A DNA stretch of 64,000 nt from positions 4,548 to 68,547 of the forward strand of contig CAZFPI010000002.1 of the NCBI GenBank assembly GCA_964521075.1. Reading direction: 5' to 3'. The stretch's first letter is position 1. Every line of letters begins with the position of its first letter. Source of the stretch: an uncultured Sterolibacterium sp. GTDB lineage: Bacteria; Pseudomonadota; Gammaproteobacteria; Burkholderiales; Rhodocyclaceae. This document shows, piece by piece, positions 15,668-38,866 of this stretch. Below the pieces are notes generated by a model, which saw nothing but the letters and a program-made list of their open reading frames with translations, did not search any database and had not been told where the DNA came from. The translations under genes and the position numbers were made by a program.

Positions 15668-16855
15668 ATGTCCCTCCTGCCGCTGCTCGCCATCAACGCG
15701 CTGTTCATGATGGCAGCAGCGGGAGGGCTGGCACTCACCACCGATGTGCCGCCCCAAGCCCTGGCCCACCTGGCACTCGCGCTGGGTGCCCTGCCGCTGA
15801 TCCTCGCGGCCATGGCCTATTTCGTGCCGGTTCTCACCCGCAGTAACGCCACGCTACCCCGCAGCCTGAGTCTGGCTCCCCTCACAGCCTGGCTGGGAGC
15901 CGCCGCCCTGATTGCCGGTTTCACGGGGGCCATGCCCTACATCGCGGCCAGCCATCTCGCCTTCCTTCTGGCCTCCGCCGCCACCCTTGCCCTGCTCCTC
16001 TGGGCCTTTGGCCGCCGACGGCGCACCGTGGGGCGAGCACACCCCGGGCTAAACTGGTATCTCGCCGCCCTGGCCTGTTTCACCCTCGCCCTGCTGGCTG
16101 TCCCCCTGATGTCCCTGTGGCCATCGCAACACCCCGCCCTGCGGCTTTTCCATCTTCATCTAAACCTCCTGGGCTTTGTTGGCCTGACGGCCATCGGCAC
16201 ACTACAAGTCCTGCTGCCGACCACACTCAGCCAGCCCGACCCCCGGGCCGCGCAACGCCTGACACAGGATCTGAAATACGCCATCGCCGGAGTGCTCCTG
16301 CTATCTGCCGCAGCGGCCTGGCTCCCCCCGCTCAGTCTCGCAGGCCTCATTCTTTACCTGATCGCGCCACTGCGAATGCTGTGGCACTGGCACGAGGATT
16401 ACCGTCAGCGGCTCACCGGAGAAAACCGTGCGAACTGCATACACGGGGCAGCCATCTCCCTGATTCTGGCCGGCACAGGGCTCATCGGTCTGCTGCTCCT
16501 CGGCCTGTCGCACAGCGGAACGATGCTGGCCGGGCTGAACGGTCGCGCCAGCATCGCTGCTTTCGTTCTCGCCTTTTTGCTGCCACTGGTCAGCGGTGCG
16601 GCCACGCAGCTGCTGCCCGTCTGGCTGCGTCCCGGCCCGCAGGGCGAGTGGCACAAGCGGATGCGCGCCAGCCTCGGTCGACAAGCCGGGCTGCGCGCCG
16701 GATTGATGGTGACAGGTGGCTGGGCTCTCGCGTTTGGCTCCCTGGCTGGCGCATGGCTTGGCGCGGCAGGCATGGCGATATTGATCGTCACCTTCCTGCG
16801 CGGCCTGTGCTTCACACGCCCCTGGCCTCGCCAGGGCAAGCTCAATTCACCGTGA
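15668..16855 (+). CDS. Polytopic inner-membrane protein, NnrS-like (tentative)
   Basis: 395 aa with about 10-12 hydrophobic helices. It has His-containing helices (LFHLHLNLLGFVGLTAIGTLQ). It is adjacent to DUF2249, a common NnrS neighbour. The family call is tentative. Confidence 0.5.
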   Translation: MSLLPLLAINALFMMAAAGGLALTTDVPPQALAHLALALGALPLILAAMAYFVPVLTRSNATLPRSLSLAPLTAWLGAAALIAGFTGAMPYIAASHLAFLLASAATLALLLWAFGRRRRTVGRAHPGLNWYLAALACFTLALLAVPLMSLWPSQHPALRLFHLHLNLLGFVGLTAIGTLQVLLPTTLSQPDPRAAQRLTQDLKYAIAGVLLLSAAAAWLPPLSLAGLILYLIAPLRMLWHWHEDYRQRLTGENRANCIHGAAISLILAGTGLIGLLLLGLSHSGTMLAGLNGRASIAAFVLAFLLPLVSGAATQLLPVWLRPGPQGEWHKRMRASLGRQAGLRAGLMVTGGWALAFGSLAGAWLGAAGMAILIVTFLRGLCFTRPWPRQGKLNSP

Positions 16856-19013
16856 CATTGACCGACGCCTGCCCCCCCAGCGGGGTCTTGGTCAGGATCT
16901 CCACAGGGCCGGACGGATAACTTCCCGTGCCCGTGCAGTTGGTTCCGCCATCCACCGTCATCGTCACCCAGCTTCCCCCCGCATGCGTCGTATCACCCAC
17001 CGGTGAACCCGAGCCTATCGCCACCGTTGCAGCCGACGGCGTGGAAGCCGGTTCAGTGAAAGTCACGGTATTCGTGCCGATACTCACCTGCGTTCCCGAA
17101 GGCATCGGGTTATTGTTGCGGTCCATCAGCCAGAAGCCGAATGTCCGCGTGCAGGCACTACTCATGGCAAAACTGGTCTGGGACAATTTCGGATAAGAAT
17201 CTGACAGCACGATAACCCGGCTGCGCCGTACATAGGCCTTGCCCCAGGCCCCGCCACAGGTATTTTCCCGGCTCAGTGCGTTGGCGTAATTCGCAGGCAG
17301 GGCCGCCGTGCCGCCATTGACGTTACGGGTCAAACAGGCCACCGGCGAAGAAACGGGCGCAAAGCTCAGATACTGTTCGCGCAAATCGGGCTGAACCGGA
17401 CTCGAATCCCACTTTCCATTCTCGTTGGCATCTACAAAAGGATCGCCCAAGTCATAGAAAGTCTCACCGGCGTCGAATACATTATTGCCATTGGCATCCA
17501 GAAAACTCATCTCGCCCACGGCATAGGCCAGAACCGTGACGCGACCGTTCTGAACGAACAGAGGATTCCCGCTGCTGTCTGTGATCGCCGCCCCACTGGA
17601 ATCCACGGCGGCCACAGCACCCTGTGATTGCGCGCTGGTGAGCTCACCTTGCGGCCGATACTGGGCACTGCGGAAAGAAACCGAACAGCGTCCCGAAGAA
17701 AGAGTGCACGAAGGACTGATCTGCCCACCTTCTGCAATGAAATTGATCGCCGTACCATCCGGGGCTGGATTGCCCATCCGGTCCGAAGCGGTCACCGTCA
17801 ATGCCGTGCTCACGCCATCGTACAACCAGCCCTCGATATTGCCGGTTTCGAGGGCGAGTGAAAAGCCGTTTTGAGCCGGCAAGCCCGTTGAAACCGACAA
17901 CTGGCTGGACTGACTGACGATCCCCGTCGTGCCGCCCAGGCTCGCCCGAACCGAAACCGGGGTCGGAATCGTTCCTGCACTGACCGTGGTCAACACCTCG
18001 CCCAGCGCATCGCTCGTCGCCGTACTGGGGAAAAGCGTGGCCCCGCCCGTCCCATTTGAAGGCAGCAGGCTGAAATCGACGGACACGCCCTGACGCCCAT
18101 TGCCATTCGTGTCAATCACACGGAACTTGACCGTCGCCGTCTGGGGCAGAAGAGAACCAGCACCCTGAATACCAATCAGCGTTGGGGCAACGGAAACGAA
18201 TTGCAGATTATTGGCGGCCGGCAAGGTGACCGCCAGCGTCCCGCTGGATGAAGCCCCGCTGGCTGTTGCCGTCACGACATCCGTCCCGGATGCACAATTC
18301 TGGTCCCGGTAGGTCGTGGTCGCCACGCCATTCAGCACATTCACCGGAGAGTCGATTGTCGCCTTGCCGGAAGAGATGCAAGGAGAGGAAAAGCTGACGG
18401 AAACCTGCGGCCCTGCGGGTGCACCCTCAAGCTGCACCGGCACGCTGACCACCGTTGTCCCATAAGATGAAATCGAGGCCTGCCCGAAACTCAGCGTGCC
18501 CAACGTCACCCTTGAGGTATTGACATCCACCGCCACGGGCAAACTGGCATGGCTTTGTGTGCTGATCGTACCATCTGCCGCCTTGCTGCTGATCTGGACC
18601 GTTGCCGTGATCGCTGTAGAACCCAGTGAGTCCGAGCCGACCGCATCCACCTGGATCGAAGCCACCCCCGTGCTATCCGTGGCGACTTGAGCCGAAGCCG
18701 GGCTGAATCTTACAAAAGCGTCTTTTGCCACAAAGCTGACGAGCGTGTTTGCCAGCGGTGCTCCCCGCCCATCCTTGACCGTCGCCACCGCGTAAATAGG
18801 GGTTCCCGAATTGACCTTGCTGATCGCATTCGAACCACTTGCAGGCAATGCCGCGACCAAAACCAGCTGCACCGTTGGCGTCCCGGCCTGGCCCGTCCCG
18901 GAACCGGAAGAACCGGCTGTCTCCCCCGCGCCCCCCCCCAGACAAGCCGTCAACATCATGGCCAGCATCGCCATCCACATCCAATTCGCCACCTTCCGCC
19001 ATTGCATCATCAT
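16842..19013 (-). CDS. Large lipoprotein with repeated bacterial Ig-like (Big_1/invasin-type) modules
   Basis: 723 aa with a signal peptide and lipobox (MLAMMLTAC). It has at least 4 Ig-like repeats (e.g. ATVKDGRGAPLANTLVSFVA...STGVASIQV...TATVQ; KFRVIDTNGNGRQGVSVDFSL). The Thr/Ser/Gly/Val-rich composition suggests an extracellular protein. Confidence 0.7.
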   Translation of the reverse strand: MMMQWRKVANWMWMAMLAMMLTACLGGGAGETAGSSGSGTGQAGTPTVQLVLVAALPASGSNAISKVNSGTPIYAVATVKDGRGAPLANTLVSFVAKDAFVRFSPASAQVATDSTGVASIQVDAVGSDSLGSTAITATVQISSKAADGTISTQSHASLPVAVDVNTSRVTLGTLSFGQASISSYGTTVVSVPVQLEGAPAGPQVSVSFSSPCISSGKATIDSPVNVLNGVATTTYRDQNCASGTDVVTATASGASSSGTLAVTLPAANNLQFVSVAPTLIGIQGAGSLLPQTATVKFRVIDTNGNGRQGVSVDFSLLPSNGTGGATLFPSTATSDALGEVLTTVSAGTIPTPVSVRASLGGTTGIVSQSSQLSVSTGLPAQNGFSLALETGNIEGWLYDGVSTALTVTASDRMGNPAPDGTAINFIAEGGQISPSCTLSSGRCSVSFRSAQYRPQGELTSAQSQGAVAAVDSSGAAITDSSGNPLFVQNGRVTVLAYAVGEMSFLDANGNNVFDAGETFYDLGDPFVDANENGKWDSSPVQPDLREQYLSFAPVSSPVACLTRNVNGGTAALPANYANALSRENTCGGAWGKAYVRRSRVIVLSDSYPKLSQTSFAMSSACTRTFGFWLMDRNNNPMPSGTQVSIGTNTVTFTEPASTPSAATVAIGSGSPVGDTTHAGGSWVTMTVDGGTNCTGTGSYPSGPVEILTKTPLGGQASVNVTVN

Positions 19014-19232: not shown

Positions 19233-20288
19233 ATGACCACCGCCGCTCACCTGCAGCACTTCGGCCTGACCCGCCCGCCCTTCCAGATTCGGCCCGATAC
19301 GGATTTCTTCTTCCCGGGCAACCGCCAGGGAGAATATCTGGACGCCCTGCTGCATGTCGCCGCGCACGACGAAGGGCTCTGCATCGTCATCGCCGGTGCA
19401 GGCAGCGGAAAAACGCTCATGGCACGCCAGATGATTTCCCGGCTCCCCGAGGACATCCAGGCACTTTACCTGGCCTACCCCTGCCTCGGTCGCGGCGAAA
19501 TTCTCGATGCCATCGGCAGCGAACTGGGCATGGACTCCCTGCCCGACACGATGGATGGCAAACTCGCCATGCTGCAAGGGCAGCTCCGGCAGCGGCATGC
19601 CGACGGAAAACGGATACTGCTCGTCATCGACGAAGCGCACACCCTGCCGACCGAATCGCTCGAAGAAATCCGCATGCTCTCCGATCTGGAAGCAGAACAG
19701 CACAAACTGGTCAACATTCTGCTGCTGGGCCAACCCGGGCTGGACACCCTGCTCACCGACCCCCGCCTGCGGCAGGTGCAGGATCGCGTGATCCACCGCT
19801 TCGAGCTCACCCCTTTCTCGCGCGACGATGTTGCCGCCTATATCGACCACCGTCTGCGTGCCTCGGGCTGGCAAGGCGGCCCGCTGTTCGACGACAAGGC
19901 ACTTGACGCCATCAGCCACGCCTCCGAAGGCCGGGCGCAACGGATCAACCTGCTGGCCGATCTCTCCTTGCAGGCAGCCTGCGCCAAAGATGCCAAACAG
20001 GTTCACGCCAGCCACGTCAAACAGGCCATGGCCAGCCTACCCGACGCCCCGGCCCTGCCCCGGGAACAATCCACCCTGAAACTCCCCACCCTGCCTCGTC
20101 TGCGGCTAGCGGGCTCGCTTGCCGCGCTGGCCCTGGCAGGCACGGTTGCCTGGGCCCTCACCTTCACCGGCACGGCCTCAAAACAGGCTGCTCCGGCATC
20201 CCCCCCCCATGCCCAGGCCAAACCCCAGACCAAAGCCGGGGGCAATGCCGCCTCACCTGCCGAACCGGCAGCCACCCAACTGGCCTAA
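19233..20288 (+). CDS. ExeA/GspA/MshM-like AAA+ ATPase with C-terminal TM segment (paralog 1)
   Basis: Sequence includes HFGLTRPPFQIRPDTDFFFPG... It has Walker A (GAGSGKT) and Walker B (LLVIDEAH) motifs, then a TM helix (LAGSLAALALAGTVAWALTF) and a Pro/Ala linker. It ends at TAA 20286-20288. Confidence 0.8.
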   Translation: MTTAAHLQHFGLTRPPFQIRPDTDFFFPGNRQGEYLDALLHVAAHDEGLCIVIAGAGSGKTLMARQMISRLPEDIQALYLAYPCLGRGEILDAIGSELGMDSLPDTMDGKLAMLQGQLRQRHADGKRILLVIDEAHTLPTESLEEIRMLSDLEAEQHKLVNILLLGQPGLDTLLTDPRLRQVQDRVIHRFELTPFSRDDVAAYIDHRLRASGWQGGPLFDDKALDAISHASEGRAQRINLLADLSLQAACAKDAKQVHASHVKQAMASLPDAPALPREQSTLKLPTLPRLRLAGSLAALALAGTVAWALTFTGTASKQAAPASPPHAQAKPQTKAGGNAASPAEPAATQLA

Positions 20289-20363
20289 AACACCCACACT
20301 CCGCCACCCGGCCCATCCCCCGCAGACACACCGGCCAGCGCGGCACAAGCCACCGTCGCACCG

Positions 20364-21002
20364 GTGCGCCCTGAACCAGCATCGCCAGCTCCCGCCCCGG
20401 TCGCCGCAGCCCCGACGGCCAAACTCCCTGCCCAGTCCGCACCATCCACACCATCCGCCCCCACCTCCGCCAAAACGACACCCACCGCAACGACAGCCCC
20501 GGCGCAGGCCAATGGTGCCAGTGGAAAACCCTCGCCGAAACTGAAGCTCGACACCGAACTGGCCTCCGTGCAACGTGTCATTCCCTTCGCAGTGTATTCC
20601 GCCAGTCTCGGGCCGCGCGGACGCAAGGCCATTGCCGAAATCGTGCCGCTGGCCAAACAAGCCGAGCGCATCAATGTCCGTGGCCGCACCGACAGCTCTG
20701 GCGACCGCGAACAGAACCGAGAAATCGCCAAAGCCCGCGCCATCAGCGTCATTTACGCCTTCAAGGCCGAAGGTGTTTCGCGCAAAATCATGAAAGCCAC
20801 CTACTGCACCCGCTGCTTCGTCGCCACGAACGACACGGCAGAAGGCCGCCGCGCCAACCGCCGCGTCGATGTCGAACTGGTCATGCCAGCCAAGCTGGCC
20901 CTGCACCTGCCCAAACCGGTCTATTCCGCGCCGGACGTCGACAACGGCCCGGTACTGCTGGCGCGTCTGGACGACCGTTTCATGGAATTCGGCCACCGCT
21001 GA
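20364..21002 (+). CDS. OmpA_C-like peptidoglycan-binding module with no signal peptide or credible start; probably the detached C-terminus of the preceding ExeA-like gene
   Basis: It is in the same reading frame as 19233..20288, and the frame stays open from 20289 onward. A Pro/Ala/Thr linker precedes the OmpA-like core (INVRGRTDSSGDREQNREIAKARA...AEGRRANRRVDVELV). The only start candidate is GTG 20364, which has no SD sequence. Confidence 0.6.
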   Translation: MRPEPASPAPAPVAAAPTAKLPAQSAPSTPSAPTSAKTTPTATTAPAQANGASGKPSPKLKLDTELASVQRVIPFAVYSASLGPRGRKAIAEIVPLAKQAERINVRGRTDSSGDREQNREIAKARAISVIYAFKAEGVSRKIMKATYCTRCFVATNDTAEGRRANRRVDVELVMPAKLALHLPKPVYSAPDVDNGPVLLARLDDRFMEFGHR

Positions 21003-21039
21003 CCCCATCGCCTCCGTCACCTGACCGCCCTTCACTGCC

Positions 21040-22173
21040 ATGTCCATCCTCTATCTGGAACACTTCGGCCTCTCCAGGCCGCCCTTCCAGATCACCCCAG
21101 ACACGGATTACTTCTACACCGGCGGCCAGCGAGGCGAGCTCCGCTCTGCCCTGCTGCATGTCGCCGTACATGACGAAGGTATCAGCACGATCGTCGCCGA
21201 AATCGGCAGCGGCAAGACGCTGCTCGCGCGGCAGATGCTGGGAGACCTGCCCAAAGACATCACCACGATCTACCTGGCCAACCCCTGCTTCAGCCGGGAA
21301 GAAATCCTCAGTGCCATCGGCCGCGATCTGGGCATGGAAAACATGCCCGCCTCCATCGAAGCCAAACTCGCCGCACTGCATCGGGAACTGCTCCGCCGCC
21401 ATGGCAACGGCGAACGGGTGCTCCTCGTCATCGACGAAGCCCACGCCATGCCGGCCGAATCCCTCGAAGAAGTCCGGCTGCTCTCCAACATCGAAACCGG
21501 CAGCCACAAGCTCGTCAATATCCTGCTGTTCGGCCAGCCCGAGCTCGACGAGCTCCTGAGCGAACCCCGTCTGCGGCAAGTGCGTGACCGCATCATCCAC
21601 CGCTTCACCCTCACCCCCTTCTCCCGTGCCGATGGCCTGGCCTATCTCAATCACCGCCTGCACATCGCGGGCTGGCACGGCGGCCCCATTTTCACGCGCG
21701 GCGCGATCAGGCTCCTGATGAAAGCCTCCGGCGGACGCGCCCGGCGCATCAACCTGCTCGCCGACAAATCCCTGCTGGCCGCCTATGCCGAACAGGCCCG
21801 CAAGGTCACCTGGCGGCATGTACGCAATGCCTGCAAGGATTTCGAGCCCCGGCGACATAAAAAACACCGCCCGGCCTGGCTTGCCCGGCCAGCCAGCACC
21901 AGCGCGGCCACACACACCGCCCCCCAGTTTTCCTGGCTGCAGGTTTTCGTACTGAGCCTGGCCGCATCCATTCTCGCGGCCACCGCCGCCCTGATATTCA
22001 CCAGAACATCGCCCCCCTGGAAAGCTCTGGAACCGGGCATCCTGCCCCAGGCAAACACAGCGGCCGCATCAACCGCATCAACCGCATCAACCGCATCGAC
22101 CACATTGGCCACAACACCCGCCCCGGGCAAAAAAACAACGCCTACCACCCCCTTAACTAAAGTAAAACCTTGA
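21040..22173 (+). CDS. ExeA/GspA/MshM-like AAA+ ATPase with C-terminal TM segment (paralog 2)
   Basis: Sequence includes HFGLSRPPFQITPDTDYFYTG..., EIGSGKT, LLVIDEAH and a TM helix (VFVLSLAASILAATAALIF). It has a short Ala/Ser/Thr/Pro tail. By eye it is about 55-60% identical to paralog 1 over the ATPase domain. Confidence 0.8.
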   Translation: MSILYLEHFGLSRPPFQITPDTDYFYTGGQRGELRSALLHVAVHDEGISTIVAEIGSGKTLLARQMLGDLPKDITTIYLANPCFSREEILSAIGRDLGMENMPASIEAKLAALHRELLRRHGNGERVLLVIDEAHAMPAESLEEVRLLSNIETGSHKLVNILLFGQPELDELLSEPRLRQVRDRIIHRFTLTPFSRADGLAYLNHRLHIAGWHGGPIFTRGAIRLLMKASGGRARRINLLADKSLLAAYAEQARKVTWRHVRNACKDFEPRRHKKHRPAWLARPASTSAATHTAPQFSWLQVFVLSLAASILAATAALIFTRTSPPWKALEPGILPQANTAAASTASTASTASTTLATTPAPGKKTTPTTPLTKVKP

Positions 22174-22236
22174 CATTTCAAGGTATCCCATTGATATTCA
22201 AAGCCGTATAAAGAATTTCCTACAGGACACCTCACC

Positions 22237-24090
22237 GTGACGCCCTCCGCTGCCTCCCGATCCAACGGCAAAATGCTGCGTCCAGACCTTGGCCTGTGGC
22301 TACTGCCAGCACTGCTCACTGCCTGCGCCACCCAGCCCCCCGCACCTTCCGACAAGCACCTGGCTCCCCAAACAGCCATCGACGGCCGCGCCCCCGACTT
22401 CCTCACCCAGCCCCCCCTGCCCCCGGCTCCCCGCCCACAAGCCCGGCCGGAGCTCTACAGCGTCGTGGTCCACAATATCGACGTTCAGCAGCTCCTCTTT
22501 GCCCTCGCGCGGGACGCAAAAATGAATATCGACGTTCATCCGGGGATCGAAGGCACGATCACCATGAACGTGCTGGACCAGACGCTGCCTGAAATCCTCG
22601 ACCGCATCGCCACCCAGGTCGACATGCGCTATGAAATCAACGGCAAGAACCTCTCCATCCAGCCAGACAGCCCCTACCTGAAAAGCTACCGTATCGACTA
22701 CCCGAACATCCGGCGCGATGCCCAAAGCACGGTCAGCACCTCCACCAACATCGGCGCATCGGGCAGCAACACCGGTGGTTCAGGAGGCAGCTCAGGCAAC
22801 AACTCCTCCAACACCACCCTCGCAAGCATCACCAACAACCGCTTCTGGGAAACGCTAACGACCAATCTGCGCGACATCCTGCGCGAAACAGACAAAATCC
22901 TGCCGGAAGGCTCCAGCGAAACCGTTACCGAACAAAGCAGCCAGCAAACCGCCCAGGCCCAACCCGGCCAGACCGCTGCCGAACCCGCCGCCAGCCCAAG
23001 CGGACGAAATACCCGCCGGGAAGCCATCCCGGCCCAGCTGAACCAGCAAGGGGCTACCACCGTCCGCCGCACCACCTTCCGCGAAGCCGCCTCGGTCATC
23101 GTCAATGCCGAAACCGGCCTCGTCAGTGTGCGTGCCACGGCGCGCCAGCACGAAAAAATCCGCGAATTCCTGGGAGGCATTCTCAGCAGCGCGCGCCGCC
23201 AGGTACTGATCGAAGCCACCATCATCGAAGTCGACCTCTCCGACCGCTTCCAGCAAGGCATCGACTGGAGCATCGTGCGAAAAATCGGCAGCTCGACAGG
23301 CTCCAGCCTCACGATGCAGCCGGCAGGCCCGGCCGCATCCGGCATGCTCACCGGCGGGCTCGTCAGCACCTTGGCTTCGCTCACCTGGAAAAAGAGCAGT
23401 GCCGAAGCCGACATCAGTGCAGCCATCAAGATGCTCGAATCCTTCGGAACCCTGCGTGTTCTCTCCAGCCCGAAAATCTCCGTCCTCAACAGCCAGACCA
23501 GCCTGCTCAAGGTTGTCGATAACCAGGTTTATTTCAACATCACCGTCACCCCCGGCACCCCGGCCACGGCCACAGCACCGGCAACCCAGCCCACCTACAG
23601 CAGCACGCTGAACACCGTCCCCATCGGCTTTCTGATGACCGTCACCCCGCAAATCAGCGACAACGGCGAAGTCACGCTCAACCTGCGCCCCAGCATCAGC
23701 CGCATCAGCGGCTACGCGCTCGACCCCAACCCCATCCTGGCCCAGAACAACATCACCAACCCCGTTCCCATCATCCAGACCCGGGAAATGGAATCCGTCA
23801 TGCGGGTGCAATCCGGCGATGTCGCCATCCTGGGCGGTCTGATGCAAGACGGCCGCGACAACAAATCCGACGAAGTCCCGATCCTGAACAAAATCCCCTT
23901 CCTGGGCGAGCTCTTCAAGTTCAAGGACAACAGCAGCCGAAAATCCGAACTCGTCGTCTTCCTGCGCCCCACCGTACTCAAGGACGCCAGCCTGGATGGC
24001 GATTTCAGCACCTACCGCAACGTCCTGCCGAATGCCATTCGCGCCATGCAAGCCCCGTCTGAACAAGTCCGCACCGGGAATGCCCCATGA
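22237..24090 (+). CDS. Secretin (MshL/PilQ/GspD family) with lipoprotein signal
   Basis: 617 aa; an alternative ATG at 22273 gives MLRPDLGLWLLPALLTAC, which contains a lipobox. The C-terminal secretin domain includes LRVLSSPKISVLNSQTS...VPILNKIPFLGELFKFKDNSSRKSELVVFLRPTVL. Confidence 0.85.
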   Translation: MTPSAASRSNGKMLRPDLGLWLLPALLTACATQPPAPSDKHLAPQTAIDGRAPDFLTQPPLPPAPRPQARPELYSVVVHNIDVQQLLFALARDAKMNIDVHPGIEGTITMNVLDQTLPEILDRIATQVDMRYEINGKNLSIQPDSPYLKSYRIDYPNIRRDAQSTVSTSTNIGASGSNTGGSGGSSGNNSSNTTLASITNNRFWETLTTNLRDILRETDKILPEGSSETVTEQSSQQTAQAQPGQTAAEPAASPSGRNTRREAIPAQLNQQGATTVRRTTFREAASVIVNAETGLVSVRATARQHEKIREFLGGILSSARRQVLIEATIIEVDLSDRFQQGIDWSIVRKIGSSTGSSLTMQPAGPAASGMLTGGLVSTLASLTWKKSSAEADISAAIKMLESFGTLRVLSSPKISVLNSQTSLLKVVDNQVYFNITVTPGTPATATAPATQPTYSSTLNTVPIGFLMTVTPQISDNGEVTLNLRPSISRISGYALDPNPILAQNNITNPVPIIQTREMESVMRVQSGDVAILGGLMQDGRDNKSDEVPILNKIPFLGELFKFKDNSSRKSELVVFLRPTVLKDASLDGDFSTYRNVLPNAIRAMQAPSEQVRTGNAP

Positions 24091-25700
24091 GCCTGCTCCT
24101 CGACGCCCTGCAACGCGCCAGCCAGGAAAAAGCCGCCACAGCAGGCAAAGTGGCCGAATCTGCCGAAACCACCAAAGCCGCCGGGGCCGACCAGGCTACG
24201 GAGGCGGCGAAAAAATCCCCCGCACCGCCTCCGCCGGAAAAGCCCGCCAGGCCACCCGTCGAACTCTCTCTGGAGCCCACGACAGCCCGGGCAATCCCCA
24301 CGCCTCCCCCCCCCGCGGCATCTCCGGCAGCCACCTTGCCGCCGGAAACGCCCCCCCTGATACCGCCCCTGACACTGGCTCCTGCCCCGGCCACGGACAC
24401 TTCCAAACCCGCGCCGGAAAAACTCTCTATCGCCCCTCCTCCCCCGGCGGACACAAAAATCCCGGAACCTGCAGCATCAACCCTCCCGCCGCCCCAGCCG
24501 GTTACACCGCCGCCCCCCCCCGACACCCGCCCCCCCATCGCTGCCGTGCCGGATACCGCCGGGCCTGCCACCGCCCTGCCCCGCAAGGAGCCCCCTCTCC
24601 CCGGGGCCAATACCTCGACAGCGCGAGACATCCTCATCGCGCAGCAGCCCGCCAGACCGCCTTCCCGCCAACGTACCCTGGCACTGGCTGCCACCGGCGT
24701 TTTTGTCGGCCTGCTCACAGGCAGCTTCTTCCTGGGCTACTGGGATCCGCTTTTCAACACCTCCCCGGGCATCGTGCCCCCCCACGCTTCCCTTCCCGCC
24801 GAAACCCACGCCCCGTCTGCTCCGCCTGTCTCGCCACCTGAGGACACCCCAAGCAACACCCCAAGCACTGCAAACGCAGCGAGTGCCACGCCCACAACCC
24901 CCCCCGTACCCGACCGCCCGGCACGGCAGACCGCCCCTGCGCGTCTGCCCGCCAGTGTGGATACGGCACGCACCGCACACACCGCACGCACCGCCCGCCC
25001 GGCCACGGCGGCCAGAATTGCAGGTGTTGCCAGCCCCGCCAGTGCCGCACAATCCGGCAAACCTGCCATCACCCGCAGCAATGCGGCAGCCTCCTCCCCG
25101 CTGGAAACGGCCTACCGCGCCCTGACCCAGGGCCGCTACGCCGAAGCCACCCAAGCCTACCGCCAGGCCCTCCAGAACAATCCGGAAGAACGCGATGCCC
25201 TGCTGGGCCTGGCCTATATCGCCCACCGCCAGGGCAACCGTGACGAAGCCCGCGATTACTACCAGCGCGCCTTGCGGACAGACCCCGACAACACCACCGC
25301 CCGCGCCGGCCTGCTGGCACTGGCGGCAGAAGGCAACCCGCAAGAAGCCGCCGGAGCTGCCCGCGACCTGAGCGAAGCTCACCCGCGTTCTGCCAGCGCG
25401 CTGGCCACGCTCGGCGGCATTCTCGCCAGGGAAGGGCGGCTGGCCGACGCGCAACAAGCCTTTTTCAAGGCCGCGAGCCTTGAACCTGCCAACCCGGCCT
25501 ACGCCTACAACCTCGCCGTCGCCCTCGACCGTCTGCACAAGCCGGTTCAGGCAGCGGATTACTACACCCGCGCCCTGCATCTGGCCGAACAGGCAGGCAA
25601 CCCCGACGCCATCCCCCGGGCAAGTGCCCTGCAACGCCTGGAACAACTGCGCGGCGTCATCGCTGCCCGGACGACCGCTCAAGACACCACCGCCCCATGA
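24087..25700 (+). CDS. Bitopic protein with GspB/MshN-like N-terminus, Pro-rich regions, one TM segment and a C-terminal TPR domain
   Basis: The MSLLLDALQRA start is typical of GspB-like proteins. About 190 aa of Pro-rich cytoplasmic sequence follows, then a TM helix (LALAATGVFVGLLTGSFFLGYW). TPR repeats come last (YRQALQNNPEERDALLGLAYIA...YYQRALRTDPDN...). ATGA overlaps on both sides. Confidence 0.65.
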   Translation: MSLLLDALQRASQEKAATAGKVAESAETTKAAGADQATEAAKKSPAPPPPEKPARPPVELSLEPTTARAIPTPPPPAASPAATLPPETPPLIPPLTLAPAPATDTSKPAPEKLSIAPPPPADTKIPEPAASTLPPPQPVTPPPPPDTRPPIAAVPDTAGPATALPRKEPPLPGANTSTARDILIAQQPARPPSRQRTLALAATGVFVGLLTGSFFLGYWDPLFNTSPGIVPPHASLPAETHAPSAPPVSPPEDTPSNTPSTANAASATPTTPPVPDRPARQTAPARLPASVDTARTAHTARTARPATAARIAGVASPASAAQSGKPAITRSNAAASSPLETAYRALTQGRYAEATQAYRQALQNNPEERDALLGLAYIAHRQGNRDEARDYYQRALRTDPDNTTARAGLLALAAEGNPQEAAGAARDLSEAHPRSASALATLGGILAREGRLADAQQAFFKAASLEPANPAYAYNLAVALDRLHKPVQAADYYTRALHLAEQAGNPDAIPRASALQRLEQLRGVIAARTTAQDTTAP

Positions 25701-27421
25701 ACGCGCCCAAGCCCGCCAATGGCAAACCCGTCCGCATTGGCGACCTGCTGATCGAACGCGGCCTGCTCACGCAGGATCAACTCCGCATCGCCCTGCACGA
25801 GCAAAAATCCTCCGGAAAACAACTGGGCGAAACCCTCATCGCGCTGGGCTTCATCACCGAAGAAGCCATGCGTGGCGCGCTGGCCGACAACCTGGGCGAA
25901 CAGGCCATCAGTCTCAAGGGCATCGCAGCGGACGCCCGCGCCCTGGAGCTCATCCCGAAACAGATCGCCAAGCACCACACCCTGTTTCCGGTCAGTTTCA
26001 ATGTCGAGAAGAACGAGCTGCTGATTGCCTGTGCCGACCCCAACGACATCGTCGCCAGCGACCAGATCAACGCCCTGCTCGGCAGCAGCCCCGGCTCGCC
26101 CACCCCCGTCTGGCGGCTGGCTTCGGGCAACGAAATCCTCCCGGCCATCGAGCAGTTCTACGGCCACGAGCTTTCCATCGACGGCATCCTCCACGAGCTG
26201 GAAACCGGCAACGTCGACATGACCAGCCTTTCGCTGGGCACGCAAGGCTACAGCCACCCCGTCGTCCGCCTCATGGATTCCCTCCTCGTCGATGCCACCT
26301 TGCGCGGCGCATCCGACATCCACTTCGAACCGGAAGCGCAATTCCTGCGTATCCGTTACCGCATCGATGGCGTCCTGCGCCAGGTACGCATCCTGCACAT
26401 GCGTTACTGGTCGGCCATGGTTGTCCGCCTCAAGGTGATGGCCGGCATGAACATCGCCGAAACCCGCGCCCCGCAAGATGGCCGGATTTCGCTCTCGATC
26501 TCCGGCAGCCCGGTCGACTTCCGCTGCGCGGCGCAGCCCACCATCCACGGCGAAAACTTCGTCCTGCGGATTCTCGACCGCAAGCGCGGCATCGTGCCGC
26601 TCACCGGCCTGGGCCTGTCCGACCACCAGCTGACGCTGCTCCAGCTCATGCTGGCCCGCCCCGAAGGCATCATGCTGGTCACCGGGCCTACCGGCTCGGG
26701 CAAGACAACCACGCTCTACTCCATCCTCGGCCACCTGAACGATGAGGGCGTAAACATCATGACCCTCGAAGACCCGGTCGAGTACCCGATGCCCATCATC
26801 CGCCAGACATCGATTTCCGAAGCCGTGAAAATGGATTTCGCCGAAGGGATCCGTTCGATGATGCGGCAAGACCCGGACATCATCCTCGTGGGCGAAATCC
26901 GCGACCACGACACCGCAGAAATGGCCCTGCGCGCCGCGATGACCGGCCACCAGGTCTTTTCCACCCTCCACACCAACTCCGCCGTCCGCTCCATTCCCCG
27001 CCTGCTCGATCTGGGGATCAAACCGGATGTCCTGGCCGGCAACATCATCGGCATCGTCGGCCAGCGGCTGATCCGCACCCTCTGCAAGGCCTGCAAGAAA
27101 CCCGACACGCCCACGCCACTGGAAGCCCAGATGCTCGGCCTGGCTCCGGGTGAAGAAATCACCCTCTACCGCCCCGCAGGCTGCCCGGCCTGCGAACTCA
27201 GCGGTTACAAAGGCCGAACCTCCATCGTCGAACTGCTCAAATTCGACGGTGGTCTGGACGACCTCCTCTCCCAGCGCGCCACCCTGCACGTCCTGAACCA
27301 GTACGCCCTGGAGCGGGGGTTCATCACCATGGCCATGGATGGCCTGCGGCGGGTGCGCGAAGGGGTGACCACCCTCGAAGAAATCGCCCGGGTGGTTGAC
27401 CTCACCGATCTGGTGAGCTGA
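25697..27421 (+). CDS. mshE: GspE/PilB-family secretion ATPase of MshE type (N-terminal MshEN c-di-GMP-binding motifs)
   Basis: 574 aa. It has MshEN motifs (see findings), Walker A GPTGSGKTTT, Walker B DPDIILVGEIRD, a His box TGHQVFSTLHTN, and a tetracysteine motif CKACKK...CPAC. Confidence 0.9.
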   Translation: MNAPKPANGKPVRIGDLLIERGLLTQDQLRIALHEQKSSGKQLGETLIALGFITEEAMRGALADNLGEQAISLKGIAADARALELIPKQIAKHHTLFPVSFNVEKNELLIACADPNDIVASDQINALLGSSPGSPTPVWRLASGNEILPAIEQFYGHELSIDGILHELETGNVDMTSLSLGTQGYSHPVVRLMDSLLVDATLRGASDIHFEPEAQFLRIRYRIDGVLRQVRILHMRYWSAMVVRLKVMAGMNIAETRAPQDGRISLSISGSPVDFRCAAQPTIHGENFVLRILDRKRGIVPLTGLGLSDHQLTLLQLMLARPEGIMLVTGPTGSGKTTTLYSILGHLNDEGVNIMTLEDPVEYPMPIIRQTSISEAVKMDFAEGIRSMMRQDPDIILVGEIRDHDTAEMALRAAMTGHQVFSTLHTNSAVRSIPRLLDLGIKPDVLAGNIIGIVGQRLIRTLCKACKKPDTPTPLEAQMLGLAPGEEITLYRPAGCPACELSGYKGRTSIVELLKFDGGLDDLLSQRATLHVLNQYALERGFITMAMDGLRRVREGVTTLEEIARVVDLTDLVS

Positions 27422-27428
27422 GCCTGCC

Positions 27429-28628
27429 ATGCCGCACTACCGCTACCGCGCTGCCGATGCCTCGGGAAACATCGCCAAAGGGGTGGTCGAGGCCCTGAAT
27501 GAAGCCGATCTCGAAGCCCAGCTCAGAAACCACGGCCTGTCGCTGATCGAAGCTACCGAAGCCAAGCCCCGACAAATCAACGTCAAAAGCCTGCCGCCGC
27601 GTGAAGTCATCAACTTCCTCTTTCAGCTCGAAATGCAGGTTCGCGGCGGTGTTCCCATCCGCACGGCCCTGGCCGACATGGGCGAAGACGCAGAATCCAC
27701 CGAGTCCCGAAACCTGGCGGCGGGCCTGACCGAAAAAATCAGTGCCGGGGCCACACTCGCTGAAGCCATCAACGGCTACCCGGGCATCTTCTCCGAAGTC
27801 GTCCGCAGCCTCATCCATGCGGGCGAAGCCTCCGGGCAACTCCCCGAAGTCCTGCGTGAAATCGTCCGTTCGCTCAAGTGGCAGGACGAAATGGCCGCCG
27901 AAACCAAGAAGCTGCTGATGTACCCCAGCTTCATCATCGTCGTCATCAGCGGCGTGGTTTTCTTCCTGATGATCTACCTTGTGCCGCAACTGGTGGGCTT
28001 TCTTACCAACATGGGCCAGGAAATCCCGATCCAGACCCGCGCCCTCATCTTCCTCTCCGGCATTTTTGTTCACTACTGGTGGGCCATCATCACCTTCCCC
28101 GTCGTGGCCGGCATCGGCATTGCCACCCTCGTTCGGGTCAATCCCAAAGCACGTTTCCAGCTGCACCGGCTGATTCTCGCTCTCCCTTATGTCGGCCTCA
28201 TCATCAAGAAAATCATCCTGGCGCGCTTTGCCGACACCTTCGCCCTCATGTACCGCACCGGCATCCCCATGCTCGAAGGGCTTGTCTATTGCGAGAAAGT
28301 CACGGGCAACCTCGCCATCCAGCAAGCCGTCGCCCGCGCGCGCGACCGCATCGCCAACGGCGAGCCCATCTCCGCCAGCTTCGCCACCGAAACCCTCTTT
28401 CCCAACATCGTCATCCGCATGCTGAAAGTCGGCGAATCCACCGGCGCGCTCGACGAAGCCCTGAGCAACATCAACTACTTTTATTCACGCGACATCGAAG
28501 AATCCATCGGCAAGGTGCAAGCCATGATCGAGCCGGCCATCACGGTCATCATGGGCCTAATCCTCGGCTGGATCATGCTGGCCGTCCTGAGCCCGATCTA
28601 CGACACCCTCACGAAGATGAAGACGTAA
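27429..28628 (+). CDS. GspF/PilC/MshG-family inner-membrane platform protein
   Basis: 399 aa with two T2SSF-type repeats (LRNHGLSLIE...GEASGQLPEVL and ...GESTGALDEAL) and three TM segments. Confidence 0.9.
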   Translation: MPHYRYRAADASGNIAKGVVEALNEADLEAQLRNHGLSLIEATEAKPRQINVKSLPPREVINFLFQLEMQVRGGVPIRTALADMGEDAESTESRNLAAGLTEKISAGATLAEAINGYPGIFSEVVRSLIHAGEASGQLPEVLREIVRSLKWQDEMAAETKKLLMYPSFIIVVISGVVFFLMIYLVPQLVGFLTNMGQEIPIQTRALIFLSGIFVHYWWAIITFPVVAGIGIATLVRVNPKARFQLHRLILALPYVGLIIKKIILARFADTFALMYRTGIPMLEGLVYCEKVTGNLAIQQAVARARDRIANGEPISASFATETLFPNIVIRMLKVGESTGALDEALSNINYFYSRDIEESIGKVQAMIEPAITVIMGLILGWIMLAVLSPIYDTLTKMKT

Positions 28629-28638
28629 GCCCCAGCCC

Positions 28639-30102
28639 ATGACCACGCTCCTTCATCTCACGGCCGCCGGCCCGCAATACTGGCGTCGCCTGCGCGGCGA
28701 ATGGCAACCTCTCGCCGCCCCGCCCGACACGCCCAGGCCCGTCTGGATCGTCACCGATCTGGCCGAAGAAACCCTGGTCGACATCGACATCCCCCGCCTT
28801 TACGGAGCCAACCGGAATACCCTGCTGGAACGCCAGCTCACCACGCGCTTCCCGGACACGCCCTACCGTCGCACACTGGACATCGCCCACGGCACAACCC
28901 TGCTCGACCGGCTGGCTCCGGTCAAACACACCCTCTTCGGCCTGCCCGCCGCCAAACGCATCGAAGACGAACTCGACGCCCGGCGACTGTCCATCGCCAC
29001 ACTCTGCCCGACCACCCTGCTGCTGGCTCACCTGGGCCAGCACAAATCCCTGCCGCCCAACCTCTTTATCGTCCTGCCTACCAGTGCCGGCCTGCGTATC
29101 GTTTTCCTCAAGAACCGGCTGCCCGTCCTGACCCGTCTGGCCCCCATCGTCAATGATGCCCGGGCACAAGCCGAAGAAATCCTGCGAACGCACCGCTATC
29201 TGGGCAATACGCGCATCCTGCCATTCGGAGCCCCCCCGCCTGCCGTCCTTCTGCTGGGCAAGGCCGACGACTTCGCCGCCCCGCTGGCCACAGCGAAAAT
29301 CGGACTCGCCCCCCCGCCAGCCTCCTGGAAAATACCCGCCGCAGACGACTGGCGGCCCTTCCTGTTCGAGCTGGCTGTCCGGAAACAGCCTTACGGGCAA
29401 CTGGCCCCCCTTCAACGGCGCATCCCCTGGATGGCCAGCCATCTGCGTCGCATGGCCCTGACCGGCGCGGCACTGACGCTTTGCACCGGGCTGACGACAG
29501 CGGCCATCAGCCTCAAGGAAATATTCGACATCCAGCGCACCAGAACAGCCGATGCCCGACTGCACCAGGAAACAAGAAGCAACCTGGATCTCATCGAAAA
29601 AACCATCGCAACCCTGGGGACTACGCCGGACAAAATGCGGCGAGCCATCGAGATCAATGACCACGAAATCATCGGCGCGCCGCCATTCGCCCGGCAAATG
29701 AAACAAATCGCCCAAGCCCTGGGTGACCCGCCGCCCGCCCGGATTGCCCTGCTCGAATGGCAGGTTTTGCCCGCCAGTGCCACTCCCTGCCAGCGATACC
29801 TGCCCCCGGCCAGTACCGATGCCGCCGCACCGGCTGAAACGACAGAAAATACCGCCGCCCCCCTGAAAGCAGAACTTGCCTTCCAGATCGCCCTGCCCAC
29901 CAGCATCAGCCCCCGCCTCAAGACAGAGGCCGTGCGCCAGATTTCCGCCCGCCTGAGCCGGATTCCCGGGGCGACACTGATTCAGGATCCGGCAAAATCG
30001 CTTTCCAAAGACACACTGCGCGGCGGCGGCTCCGCCAGCGAAGATCCGGACAAAGCCCCCCTCTGGTGTCTGACACTCGCCCCGCAGGAGAAACAGCCAT
30101 GA
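28639..30102 (+). CDS. Bitopic assembly protein, MshI / PilM-PilN-fusion / GspL-like (tentative)
   Basis: 487 aa. A roughly 270-aa cytoplasmic domain is followed by one TM helix (MALTGAALTLCTGLTTAAISL) and a periplasmic coiled-coil-like region. The size and topology match MshI/GspL. No motif-level proof. Confidence 0.45.
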   Translation: MTTLLHLTAAGPQYWRRLRGEWQPLAAPPDTPRPVWIVTDLAEETLVDIDIPRLYGANRNTLLERQLTTRFPDTPYRRTLDIAHGTTLLDRLAPVKHTLFGLPAAKRIEDELDARRLSIATLCPTTLLLAHLGQHKSLPPNLFIVLPTSAGLRIVFLKNRLPVLTRLAPIVNDARAQAEEILRTHRYLGNTRILPFGAPPPAVLLLGKADDFAAPLATAKIGLAPPPASWKIPAADDWRPFLFELAVRKQPYGQLAPLQRRIPWMASHLRRMALTGAALTLCTGLTTAAISLKEIFDIQRTRTADARLHQETRSNLDLIEKTIATLGTTPDKMRRAIEINDHEIIGAPPFARQMKQIAQALGDPPPARIALLEWQVLPASATPCQRYLPPASTDAAAPAETTENTAAPLKAELAFQIALPTSISPRLKTEAVRQISARLSRIPGATLIQDPAKSLSKDTLRGGGSASEDPDKAPLWCLTLAPQEKQP

Positions 30103-30716
30103 GCCCCCGGCGCAGCATTCTCCTCGCAGCCCGGCCCCAGCTCATCCTCCTGGCCGCAAGCCTCCTGCTGGCCATATTGCTGGGCGGCGGTGGCGTTTTC
30201 CTTGAAGAAAGGGCACAAGATGAACTTCGCCAGCAAAATAGCCAGACCCAGCGTCTGCACGACGACCTGAACGCCCGCCAGGAAGAACTCGCCTATCTGA
30301 CCAGCCACATCCAGGCCTTTCGAACACTCAAAGCCCAGGGGCTGCTGGAAGTGCCCGACCGGGAAAACTGGGTCGAAAATCTGCTATCCACCCGCCGGGA
30401 ATTGCGTCTGCCCGACACACTGGCCTACACCCTTCCCCCCTCCAGGCCCTTGGTCGACCGCCCGGATGCCACAGCTGCCACGAATACCCCGGCGGCAACC
30501 GAGCCTCCCCCGGCAGATACTCCGCTCATCTACGACCTCGAAATCCGCCTGCGAGACATCCACGAAGGCGAGCTCCTCAATTTTCTGGCAGCCTTCCAGC
30601 CCTCGATCAAGGAACATTTCCGTGTCCAGTCCTGCCTGCTGAACAACCCCGGAGCCACGGGGCTGGAAGCCCATTGCACCCTGCGTTTTTTCACCCTGCC
30701 GCCAGACACAAAATAA
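30099..30716 (+). CDS. Bitopic TM + coiled-coil protein, MshJ/PilO/GspM-like (tentative)
   Basis: 205 aa from ATG 30099, which forms an ATGA overlap with the upstream stop and has AGGAG 8 nt upstream. It has an N-terminal TM helix ([21 protein letters not shown]) followed by a coiled coil ([26 protein letters not shown]). Confidence 0.45.
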
Positions 30717-38857: not shown

Positions 38858-38866
38858 CCTCCCGGC

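Follow-up and report, generated by a model that had tools for sequence, protein, structure and literature searches.

The MSHA (mannose-sensitive haemagglutinin) type IV pilus system of Vibrio and Aeromonas is encoded by mshHIJKLMNEGF plus mshBACDOPQ, and we know of no MSH locus that carries its own prepilin peptidase. In Aeromonas, ExeAB helps ExeD to multimerise. The MSH class is that of Denise, Abby & Rocha 2019 (PMC6668835), and ExeA/ExeB (GspA/GspB) is the secretin-assembly complex of the Aeromonas type II secretion system (T2SS) (PMC4098917).

At 19233-30716, the stretch of DNA analysed here (64 kb, referred to as the window) probably encodes the assembly machine of a type IV pilus of the MSHA type (MSH-like). 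In this Sterolibacterium-like betaproteobacterium, the pilus genes would be split over two loci, the operon in the window being one of them. The system would be an uncharacterised betaproteobacterial form of the MSH-like pilus, a known kind, its class being read from scores, folds and gene architecture. The features are as follows (positions in the window):

16842-19013, minus strand: Big_1 (Ig-like) lipoprotein, divergent; three Big_1 domains, lipobox MLTAC
19233-21002, plus strand: ExeA/GspA-type secretin-assembly factor, interrupted by a TAA; AAA_22 (9e-21) and OmpA (8e-10) in one frame
20286-20288, plus strand: premature stop TAA that splits the ExeA-OmpA gene; GAA (Glu) in contig L018
21040-22173, plus strand: second ExeA/MshM-like AAA+ protein; AAA_22 (1.7e-25), 39% identity to Aeromonas MshM
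22270-24090, plus strand: MshL-type lipoprotein secretin; Secretin (3.5e-37), Secretin_N_2, TIGR02519
24087-25700, plus strand: MshN-like bitopic protein; TPR families, placed between secretin and ATPase like mshN
25697-27421, plus strand: MshE-type assembly ATPase with an N-terminal c-di-GMP-binding MshEN domain; T2SSE (1.4e-121), MshEN
27429-28628, plus strand: GspF/MshG-type inner-membrane platform protein; two T2SSF domains (1.6e-48)
28639-30102, plus strand: candidate fused PilM/PilN-type (GspL/MshI-class) alignment protein, 487 aa (protein 8); Foldseek on an AF2 model
30099-30716, plus strand: putative PilO/MshJ/GspM-class bitopic protein, 205 aa (protein 9); TM residues 6-36, Foldseek on an AF2 model

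The locus comprises nine ORFs, all in one orientation, as a previous reading of the sequence alone (the sequence-only reading) had reported. Its count of nine genes, however, has to be reduced to what we read as eight, because ORF1 and ORF2 share a frame and are split only by the TAA at 20286-20288 and a Pro/Ala linker that lacks a start codon. ORF1 (19233-20288) carries AAA_22 and ORF2 (20364-21002) carries OmpA_C (PF00691). The joint product would have a cytoplasmic AAA+ domain, one predicted TM segment (residues ~292-311), the Pro/Ala linker and a periplasmic OmpA_C domain. Its homologue in the relative L002 is a fused protein of 627 aa, with a single tblastn HSP spanning 19257-20981, and an ENA contig (L018) that is 99.6% identical over 19451-20892 has GAA at the codon in question and codes for a continuous protein. 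On these alignments, the TAA is taken to be either a nonsense SNP or an assembly error. What had been called a separate OmpA_C-type gene instead encodes the part of an ExeA/GspA-type AAA+ protein that lies in the periplasm. OmpA_C in place of the usual peptidoglycan-binding domain is a known architecture for such proteins; the domain of ExeA itself we take to be of the PG_binding_1 type. The idea of a variant machine whose front end anchors to peptidoglycan in an unusual way is borne out only in part; what holds is that the order of the genes and two of the components depart from canonical MSHA. The order is M'-M-L-N-E-G-I*-J*, which indeed departs from the Vibrio mshIJKLMNEGF, and the ATGA start/stop overlaps at 24087-24090, 25697-25700 and 30099-30102 are present in the sequence. 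Except for the first gene, all ORFs of the locus are intact. The dN/dS values against the sister species (0.08 for the platform, 0.31 for the 487-aa protein and 0.23 for the 205-aa protein) indicate purifying selection on the machine genes. Independent Logan assemblies, L004 and L005, both contain the junction between protein 9 and glmS with 100% identity.

Five core proteins are recognisable, and they show the same NCBIfam score pattern as the MSHA locus of Aeromonas caviae (mshH-I-I2-J-K-L-M-N-E-G-F-pilins, L037), which served as reference. The second AAA+ protein (TM residues 296-322, a short periplasmic tail, no peptidoglycan-binding domain in a domain search) scores 190.6 bits against TIGR03015, below the cutoff, as does canonical Aeromonas MshM. 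The secretin, for which ATG 22270 is the likely start in an ORF that opens at GTG 22237, has the lipobox LLTAC. It passes TIGR02519 (pilus_MshL; 255.9 bits, cutoff 250.2), as does the A. caviae secretin, and remains below the cutoffs of GspD (162.6 bits, cutoff 351) and PilQ (113.5 bits). The protein encoded at 24087-25700 has a conserved N-terminal motif, a Pro-rich cytoplasmic region, a TM segment (residues 197-218) and periplasmic TPR. Its top match is PrsT (63.8 bits), which is also the best model for Aeromonas MshN (58.9 bits). The label "GspB-like" does not hold for this protein, which has no match to Pfam T2SSB and an N-terminus resembling that of Aeromonas MshN. The ATPase scores nearly equally against GspE (483 bits) and PilB (481 bits), below both cutoffs, and matches the c-di-GMP motif model NF053729 (68.8 bits, cutoff 38); the same tie and the NF053729 match are found for Aeromonas MshE. 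It carries the RIGDLLIERGLLTQDQLRIALHEQ motif, a Walker A motif and a tetracysteine motif, matches PDB 5HTL (MshE N domain) at 2e-15, and has its best place in the A. caviae chromosome at mshE. The platform protein (97.7% identical to that of the sister species) has GspF as its best model but misses the cutoff (298.8 bits), as does Aeromonas MshG (330.5 bits).

Proteins 8 and 9 had been assigned by size. No Pfam or NCBIfam model matched the 487-aa protein; likewise, none matched MshI, MshJ and MshK of A. caviae. In its AF2 model (pLDDT 80.5), the cytoplasmic domain is predicted to be actin-like and the periplasmic one to be a small alpha/beta domain; a long helix carries a predicted membrane segment of weak hydrophobicity. 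The top Foldseek matches are PilM (5eou, 5.5e-8) and the GspL cytoplasmic domain (5tkw, 4pht), which is strong evidence for a PilM/GspL-like fold and bears out the MshI/GspL guess. For the 205-aa protein, the model (pLDDT 73) predicts a TM segment, a coiled coil and a ferredoxin-like periplasmic domain. PilO (5uvr, 2rjz) is among its top folds, together with Amuc_1100, but the best E-value is only about 2e-3, so that the MshJ/PilO/GspM guess is weakly supported for a putative PilO-like protein. Each of the two periplasmic domains has two invariant Cys (C384 and C477 in the 487-aa protein; C179 and C193 in the 205-aa protein). In hhalign comparisons with Aeromonas MshI, MshI2 and MshJ, the probability was 4% or less, and no similarity in sequence was detectable for either protein. 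They are ~70% identical to their counterparts in the sister species, against 90-98% for their neighbours, which points to faster evolution.

A class III leader motif is absent from all six frames of the window, tblastn with the pilins of relatives gave no match there, and Peptidase_A24 is missing from its called ORFs; the reported lack of prepilin and prepilin peptidase genes in the 64 kb is therefore confirmed. In relatives, the same core is followed by a pilin module, which consists of a small protein (D1), a pilin-like protein of ~690-717 aa (D2), two class III prepilins and a two-component system (response regulator/kinase). D1 and the prepilins lie directly downstream of the core in six relatives with enough downstream sequence (L001, L002, L010, L014, L015 and L017), five of which also have D2; in L007, only D1 and D2 follow. 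The sister-genome pilins pass TIGR02532 and PF07963. D2, the largest pilin-like protein, lacks Glu5, as presumably does GspK, and its relatives are annotated as PulG by JGI. The presumed major pilin has ~218 aa with a Cys six residues before the C-terminus; major pseudopilins are generally shorter and are not known to have such a near-C-terminal Cys.

These components could also be read as a T2SS-like machine, in which a short pseudopilus from the unlinked module would push folded proteins, possibly the Ig lipoprotein, through the secretin. In its favour, the 487-aa protein has PilM and PilN parts fused as in GspL, GspF is the best model for the platform, the best weak matches of the pilins are GspG and GspH, and assembly factors of the ExeA type, which bind peptidoglycan, are known to occur in T2SS (PMC4098917); the missing Glu5 and the PulG annotation of D2 point the same way. 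We nevertheless hold this to be unlikely: the secretin exceeds the cutoff for MshL but stays far under that for GspD, a bona fide MSHA locus has the same sub-cutoff GspE and GspF scores, neither the window nor the gene list of any relative shows a GspC-like or PDZ protein, the presumed major pilin has the length and the Cys mentioned above, and the link of the Ig lipoprotein to the system is inconsistent.

For the MSH-like pilus, the question is where the pilins are encoded. The closest species-level relative, a sister Sterolibacterium MAG, shares with the window the order platform, protein 8, protein 9, glmS, NMO (L012), while the pilin module is on another contig of the same assembly (GCA_964500605.1), behind an SDR gene (L022). 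The split is thus directly seen in the sister genome, and both of its loci recur in Logan run SRR27217540. Core DNA of the window type (L019, 95.6-96.5% nt) is found in the ENA assembly ERZ15185866, together with a detached pilin module behind the same SDR gene, which is 98.6% identical (L047). D2 of L047 falls in the 90% cluster of P0172, a protein that is NCBI-only and unindexed, like the window proteins. Each of the two lineages in which no pilins adjoin the core has the module at a second locus. We infer that the module is also present in the window's own genome, based on co-occurrence in metagenome assemblies and on the sister MAG, whose binning can err. The suggestion that the pilins are encoded elsewhere is supported by the relatives, and the "pilin-less" appearance would reflect the splitting of the cluster rather than a machine of a new kind.

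The in-frame TAA, the absence of pilin, D1 and D2 sequences from the 64 kb and the faster evolution of proteins 8 and 9 would also fit a decaying remnant, in which the pilin module is lost and the machine genes are becoming pseudogenes, the nonsense codon being the first sign. This is quite improbable, as the 99.6%-identical contig lacks the stop, the other genes are all intact (dN/dS 0.08-0.31), the truncated architecture is common to the sister species, whose intact module sits elsewhere, and ERZ15185866 has a matching module alongside core DNA of the window type.

The Ig lipoprotein had been proposed as an obvious passenger or adhesin, which finds no support: the window and L002 are the only cases in which it adjoins the system, and it is absent from the locus in L001, L010, L015, L016 and L017. 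Distant homologues are encoded beside pilMNOPQ or several kb from other secretins, which suggests some link to secretin clusters but not export; the lipoprotein is a neighbour of uncertain relevance. A variant in which secretin, ATPase and platform work without dedicated pilins, e.g. as exporter or anchor of this lipoprotein, would account for the lack of pilin genes in the window, for the divergent adjacency and for the homologues beside pilMNOPQ, but it is very improbable given the modules (or, in L007, D1 and D2) downstream of the core in relatives, the second loci in both lineages without adjacent pilins and the five loci devoid of the lipoprotein, and we know of no T4F motor that works without pilins.

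In the MSH-like pilus that we favour, c-di-GMP would bind to the MshEN domain of the ATPase, which may act on the GspF/MshG platform and dock on the 487-aa protein at the latter's actin-like cytoplasmic domain. With their periplasmic parts, this protein and the PilO-like protein would connect the inner-membrane motor to the secretin. The secretin's multimerisation across the cell wall may be aided by the two AAA+ proteins (one with OmpA_C) and the TPR protein. Both the c-di-GMP control and this ExeA-like role are proposed by analogy. Pilins would come from the unlinked module (small periplasmic protein, ~717-aa pilin-like protein, two class III prepilins, response regulator/kinase), and a prepilin peptidase that belongs to another system presumably processes them.

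Compared with ExeA/ExeB (PMC4098917), the window has the same type of AAA+ ATPase, which sits in the inner membrane with one TM segment and has a peptidoglycan-binding domain in the periplasm, its gene adjoining those for a secretin and a bitopic partner. The domain is OmpA_C in the window, while the paper names that of ExeA just "peptidoglycan binding domain" (PMC4098917). Unlike ExeA/ExeB, the window has two AAA+ paralogues, a TPR (MshN-like) partner without T2SSB, and an MshL-type secretin instead of GspD. With the T2SS series GspE-F-L-M, it shares a fused actin-like-plus-periplasmic protein beside a GspM/PilO-class partner, and the Foldseek matches of the former include the GspL cytoplasmic domain alone and with GspE (5tkw, 4pht). 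It differs in missing all T2SS equivalog cutoffs, in lacking GspC and in its MshL-type secretin.

The likeness to MSHA extends to the MshL-type lipoprotein secretin passing TIGR02519, the MshE-type ATPase with the MshEN c-di-GMP motif, the GspF-like platform, the MshM-like AAA+ protein, the TPR protein between secretin and ATPase, and a locus without prepilin peptidase; identity to the Aeromonas MSHA proteins is 29-39%. MshF and MshH are missing from the window, and its order contrasts with I-J-K-L-M-N-E-G-F. The PilM-like and PilN-like parts are fused (487 aa), whereas Aeromonas MshI (291 aa) and MshI2 (197 aa) are separate. The window has an extra ExeA paralogue with an OmpA_C domain, and the pilin module of the relatives includes a pilin-like protein of ~700 aa and its own two-component system.

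The locus at 19233-30716 (+) is predicted from its sequence to be the machine half of an MSH-like type IV pilus system, in a betaproteobacterial variant whose genes are split over two loci. The nine co-oriented ORFs listed by the sequence-only reading are present at their coordinates, with a coding signature that matches a 62% G+C genome, and the three ATGA overlaps (24087-24090, 25697-25700 and 30099-30102) are all real. Pfam and NCBIfam bear out the domain calls: two AAA_22 proteins (ExeA/MshM-like), OmpA_C, a secretin (with a lipobox), a Pro-rich TPR protein, an ATPase (T2SSE and MshEN) and a platform protein with two T2SSF domains. The last two proteins, termed proteins 8 and 9 here, are matched by no Pfam or NCBIfam model. 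Counts from a scan for promoters and terminators did not rise above chance. The features that need coordinates are the following.

2444-10234 (-): PilJ-type MCP and ChpA-like hybrid kinase (three Hpt, CheW and receiver domains), part of a Pil-Chp chemosensory system
15668-16855 (+): 395-aa polytopic membrane protein directly upstream of the locus, without a Pfam match
16842-19013 (-): Big_1 (Ig-repeat) lipoprotein
19233-20288 (+): ORF1, the AAA_22 half of the first gene
20364-21002 (+): OmpA ORF, the second half of the first gene
28639-30102 (+): protein 8 (487 aa)
30099-30716 (+): protein 9 (205 aa)

The count of nine genes has to be reduced to eight, because ORF1 and the "OmpA module" are one gene. 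They share one frame and are separated by a TAA (20286-20288) and a start-less Pro/Ala linker. The AAA_22 and OmpA halves are fused as a 627-aa protein in a relative, where a single HSP spans the window's stop, and an ENA contig that is 99.6% identical over the stretch has GAA at the stop codon and is translated continuously. The interruption in this record is a nonsense SNP or an assembly error. The OmpA ORF was also considered as a separate periplasmic protein; this was rejected, as it has no signal peptide and no start context and shares the frame of ORF1. AAA_22, a TM segment and OmpA_C thus lie in one frame, encoded together with a secretin, and the predicted architecture of the first gene is that of ExeA/GspA: a cytoplasmic AAA+ domain, one TM segment and a putative periplasmic, peptidoglycan-binding OmpA_C domain. 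ExeA itself consists of a cytoplasmic AAA+ domain, a single TM segment and a periplasmic peptidoglycan-binding domain (PMC4098917). The architecture is the same, and the window adds an ExeA-type secretin-assembly factor with OmpA_C as the putative peptidoglycan-binding domain.

A genome scan with an alignment of the eight closest sequences was among the searches for homologous loci. The core (secretin, TPR protein, ATPase, platform, protein 8 and protein 9) is found in seven metagenome or MAG loci (L001, L002, L010, L014, L015, L016 and L017), and an ExeA-like gene precedes it in all of these except L010 (6/7). In six of these loci, a second module follows directly 3' of the core; the seventh, L016, stops too close behind protein 9 to show one. 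An eighth locus (L007) begins at the platform gene and has only the first two module genes, D1 and D2, downstream. D1 is a protein of ~150 aa. D2 (~700 aa; in five of the six loci) has a pilin-like N-terminus without Glu5. D3/D7 are at least two prepilins with classical G|FTLVE leaders, which score above the TIGR02532 and PF07963 cutoffs. A response regulator/kinase pair is part of the module in three of the six loci. D2 has more than 500 homologues, among others from Propionivibrio, Rhodocyclus tenuis, Rhodoferax, Sulfuricella, Sideroxydans and Sterolibacterium. Because the core is accompanied by a prepilin module in relatives and D2 is spread across these genera, the family is predicted to be a pilin-polymerising machine that is widespread in Betaproteobacteria.

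Three details concern these relatives. D2 (~717 aa; 769-2928 in L022 and 1619-3772 in L047, two loci described below) combines a hydrophobic pilin-like N-terminus, in which Glu5 is lacking, with many conserved cysteines. Neither Pfam nor NCBIfam has a model that matches it, and it may represent a giant minor pilin or a tip adhesin. The response regulator and kinase (L022 3911-5621; L047 4765-6478) have the PEP-CTERM regulators PrsR and PrsK as their best sub-threshold NCBIfam matches. L016 (CALPVM020000050.1) is filed under an Akkermansia muciniphila MAG, yet the locus is of betaproteobacterial type and its ATPase is 78% identical to that of the window; it is probably a mis-binned contig.

The window itself has no pilin genes, as had been noticed. 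A six-frame motif scan of the 64 kb found no class III prepilin leader, the pilins of the relatives had no tblastn match in the window, and there is no prepilin peptidase among the called window ORFs. A complete filament motor without filament genes would matter if it were real. The absence from the window holds, but the relatives explain it by a split gene cluster. In the window, 124 bp separate protein 9 from glmS, a junction which occurs at 100% identity in two independent Logan assemblies. The closest species-level relative, an uncultured Sterolibacterium MAG (L012), has the same junction (identity to the window: platform 97.7%, protein 8 71%, protein 9 69%, glmS 90%). On another contig of its assembly (GCA_964500605.1), an SDR gene is directly followed by the complete D1-D7 module (L022). 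Exact copies of both its core locus and its module locus are found in Logan run SRR27217540. ENA assembly ERZ15185866 contains window-type core DNA (L019; 95.6-96.5% nt identity, coverage 1.7) and also a D1-D7 module behind the same SDR gene (L047; coverage 2.1), with the SDR 98.6% identical to that of the sister MAG at the protein level. The D2 of this module belongs to the 90% cluster of P0172, a protein found on NCBI only; the contig index lacks it, as it lacks the proteins of the window. Between the two lineages, D2 is 76% identical, similar to proteins 8 and 9. As both lineages have the same junction and a detached module, the split predates their divergence. From this co-occurrence and from the contiguous or detached modules of relatives, we infer that the D1-D7 module is also present in the exact genome of the window.

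Values of dN/dS (platform 0.08, protein 8 0.31, protein 9 0.23; for comparison, glmS 0.10) indicate that the machine half stayed under purifying selection. Identity along the operon is mosaic. Compared to L018, the ENA contig that has GAA at the stop codon, window 19451-30103 is 99.6%, 95.6% and 97.5% identical in successive segments. Compared to L012, window 27595-30697 shows a platform dS of 0.16, against 0.63-0.93 in the neighbouring genes. This pattern suggests recombination within the operon or, in the ATPase and platform genes (GC3 0.80-0.84), a strongly biased codon usage.

Three known systems were considered for the class assignment. For a type IVa pilus, scores stay below equivalog level (PilB 481, cutoff 675.65; PilC 230, cutoff 700; PilQ 113.5, cutoff 284.35), and none of the locus proteins matches the Pfam families PilM_2, PilN, PilO or PilP, all of which are matched by a true pilMNOPQ cluster (L030). 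A T2SS is likewise not reached at equivalog level (GspD 162.6, cutoff 351.35; GspE 483.4, cutoff 630.25; GspF 298.8, cutoff 424), and GspC (HR domain, with or without PDZ) had no Pfam match in any window ORF or in the lists from relatives. For MSH, the mandatory genes in TXSScan are mshA, mshE, mshG, mshL plus mshM. The secretin scores 255.9 bits against TIGR02519 (pilus_MshL), above the cutoff of 250.2 (Aeromonas MshL: 279.1). The ATPase has the MshEN domain (PF05157) with the full 24-residue motif (residues 13-36), matches the N domain of MshE in 5HTL at 2e-15, and scores 68.8 bits (cutoff 38) against NF053729, the MshE-related c-di-GMP motif. The MshEN domain is also known in some PilB proteins, so that it supports MshE without being exclusive to it. 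The two T2SSF domains and AAA_22 are as in MshG and MshM, respectively.

The reference for MSH was the Aeromonas caviae replicon NZ_AP026896.1 (L037), which has a canonical MSHA locus (mshH-I-I2-J-K-L-M-N-E-G-F, then pilins). PLSDB lists this 4.94-Mb replicon as a "plasmid", but it is evidently the chromosome. Its best match to the window ATPase is mshE, within this locus. Identity to the Aeromonas proteins is 29-39% (MshG 29.6%, MshM 39%). The NCBIfam score pattern, listed here, is the same for the window proteins and the Aeromonas MSHA proteins.

NCBIfam scores of window proteins and Aeromonas MSHA proteins
ATPase, PilB / GspE models: window 481 / 483, Aeromonas 526 / 524; both below cutoff
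ATPase, NF053729 c-di-GMP motif: window 68.8, Aeromonas 73.6
Platform, GspF model: window 298.8, Aeromonas 330.5; below cutoff
Secretin, TIGR02519 MshL (cutoff 250.2): window 255.9, Aeromonas 279.1
MshM-like, TIGR03015: window 180.7 and 190.6, Aeromonas 232.6; below cutoff
TPR protein, best match PrsT: window 63.8, Aeromonas 58.9
MshI/J/K-class proteins: no model in window or Aeromonas

The ExeA-like and TPR proteins have a PEP-CTERM-associated ATPase and PrsT as best matches. Since the same is true for the canonical MshM and MshN of Aeromonas, these matches, together with those of the module's regulator and kinase to PrsR and PrsK, reflect family relatedness and not a link to an exosortase.

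Protein 8 has a family model with a mean pLDDT of 80.5. It shows an actin-like N-terminal domain, with PilM and the cytoplasmic domain of GspL as the best PDB matches, followed by a helix of ~70 residues with a weakly hydrophobic membrane segment. The C-terminal part is a small periplasmic domain of alpha/beta type, in which two cysteines are invariant. By this model, protein 8 is a fused PilM/PilN protein of the GspL/MshI class. At E<=1e-3, a profile search retrieved 1,374 representatives out of 1.84 billion, and ten distant members that were inspected are unnamed or "hypothetical protein". Protein 9, predicted from an alignment built from database homologues, consists of a TM helix, a coiled coil and a ferredoxin-like domain, also with two invariant cysteines. 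Its best fold matches include PilO and the PilO-like Amuc_1100, with an E of only about 2e-3; a comparison of its family profile with PDB sequences gave nothing meaningful. When the family profiles of proteins 8 and 9 were aligned to Aeromonas MshI, MshI2 and MshJ with hhalign, the probability was <=4%; with single sequences as templates, the sensitivity of this test is low.

A mechanism can be proposed from the known families. Binding of c-di-GMP to the MshEN domain would activate the ATPase. To polymerise prepilins, the ATPase would act through the platform and through protein 8's actin-like domain. Proteins 8 and 9 would bridge to the lipoprotein secretin. Assembly of the secretin would be aided by the ExeA-type AAA+ proteins, one of them anchored to peptidoglycan through OmpA_C, and by the MshN-like TPR protein. 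The prepilins would be processed by the peptidase of another system. The Pil-Chp genes at 2444-10234 suggest that the organism also has a type IVa pilus, which is a likely source of this peptidase.

The divergent Big_1 lipoprotein had been put forward as a passenger. It adjoins the system only in the window and in L002 and is absent at the locus in five other relatives. In another organism, a homologue of 33% identity follows a genuine pilMNOPQ and is flanked by pilQ and aroB (L030/L031; L030 8001-10172), and ~45%-identical homologues lie 7.5 kb from secretin and TPR genes (L025-L027; L025 8001-10610). The Big_1 lipoproteins may be a secretin- or pilus-associated family. Their recurrent nearness to secretin clusters in unrelated contexts is noteworthy but does not support a passenger role. 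The 395-aa membrane protein has a 59%-identical homologue directly upstream of the ExeA gene in L015 and a 56%-identical one beside the Big_1 homologue in L029; its neighbourhood may be conserved.

Elsewhere, the gene content fits a denitrifying, sterol-degrading Sterolibacterium-like organism.

37514-39313 (-): DUF3443/DUF2844 gene pair
39764-45890 (-): steroid-type beta-oxidation genes (ChsH2-like hydratase, acyl-CoA dehydrogenases, thiolase-like protein)
48840-54321 (-): carboxylase cluster (methylcrotonyl-CoA carboxylase and HMG-CoA lyase)
58081-59685 (-): cytochrome cd1 gene (NirS-like)

The observation made from the sequence was largely right, while its striking interpretation, a new kind of machine, was not. 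What stays is modest but useful: an MSH-like pilus system that is conserved in Betaproteobacteria of environmental importance. Neither Pfam nor NCBIfam has a model for four of its components, namely the PilM/PilN-type fusion protein, the PilO-like protein, D1 and the pilin-like D2 of ~700 aa. Within the library searched, a literature search on betaproteobacterial MSH systems returned nothing specific. It is possible, although we rather doubt it, that the family forms a distinct type IV filament subtype of Betaproteobacteria, undescribed so far, which has a relationship to MSH but a place outside the canonical MSH clade. Carriers would include Sterolibacterium, Rhodocyclaceae, Propionivibrio, Rhodocyclus tenuis, Sulfuricella, Sideroxydans and Rhodoferax. 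It would stand out by a fused alignment protein in the style of GspL, whose periplasmic disulfide is conserved, by a Glu5-less pilin-like protein of ~700 aa that may be a tip adhesin, by a response regulator/kinase pair of its own and, in one sublineage, by a duplication of ExeA, with a cell-wall anchor of the OmpA type. If true, the subtype could be a c-di-GMP-gated adhesion organelle in wastewater and sediment bacteria.

Compared to MSH, the locus of the window differs in several respects. Proteins 8 and 9 have no detectable sequence similarity to MshI, MshI2 or MshJ, and an MshK-like gene is absent from the window; the fold class agrees for PilM/GspL and weakly for PilO. The gene order is M'-M-L-N-E-G-I*-J* and not I-J-K-L-M-N-E-G-F. 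A fused PilM/PilN-type protein takes the place of the split proteins of Aeromonas, MshF and MshH are lacking, an extra ExeA-OmpA paralogue is present, and the pilin module includes a two-component system. MSH loci never carry a prepilin peptidase (PMC6668835), and the window locus likewise has none. MSH systems are, however, almost always encoded at a single locus (PMC6668835), while the lineage of the window has two loci. An MSH-class system can thus be divided between two loci, an unusual arrangement in this class.
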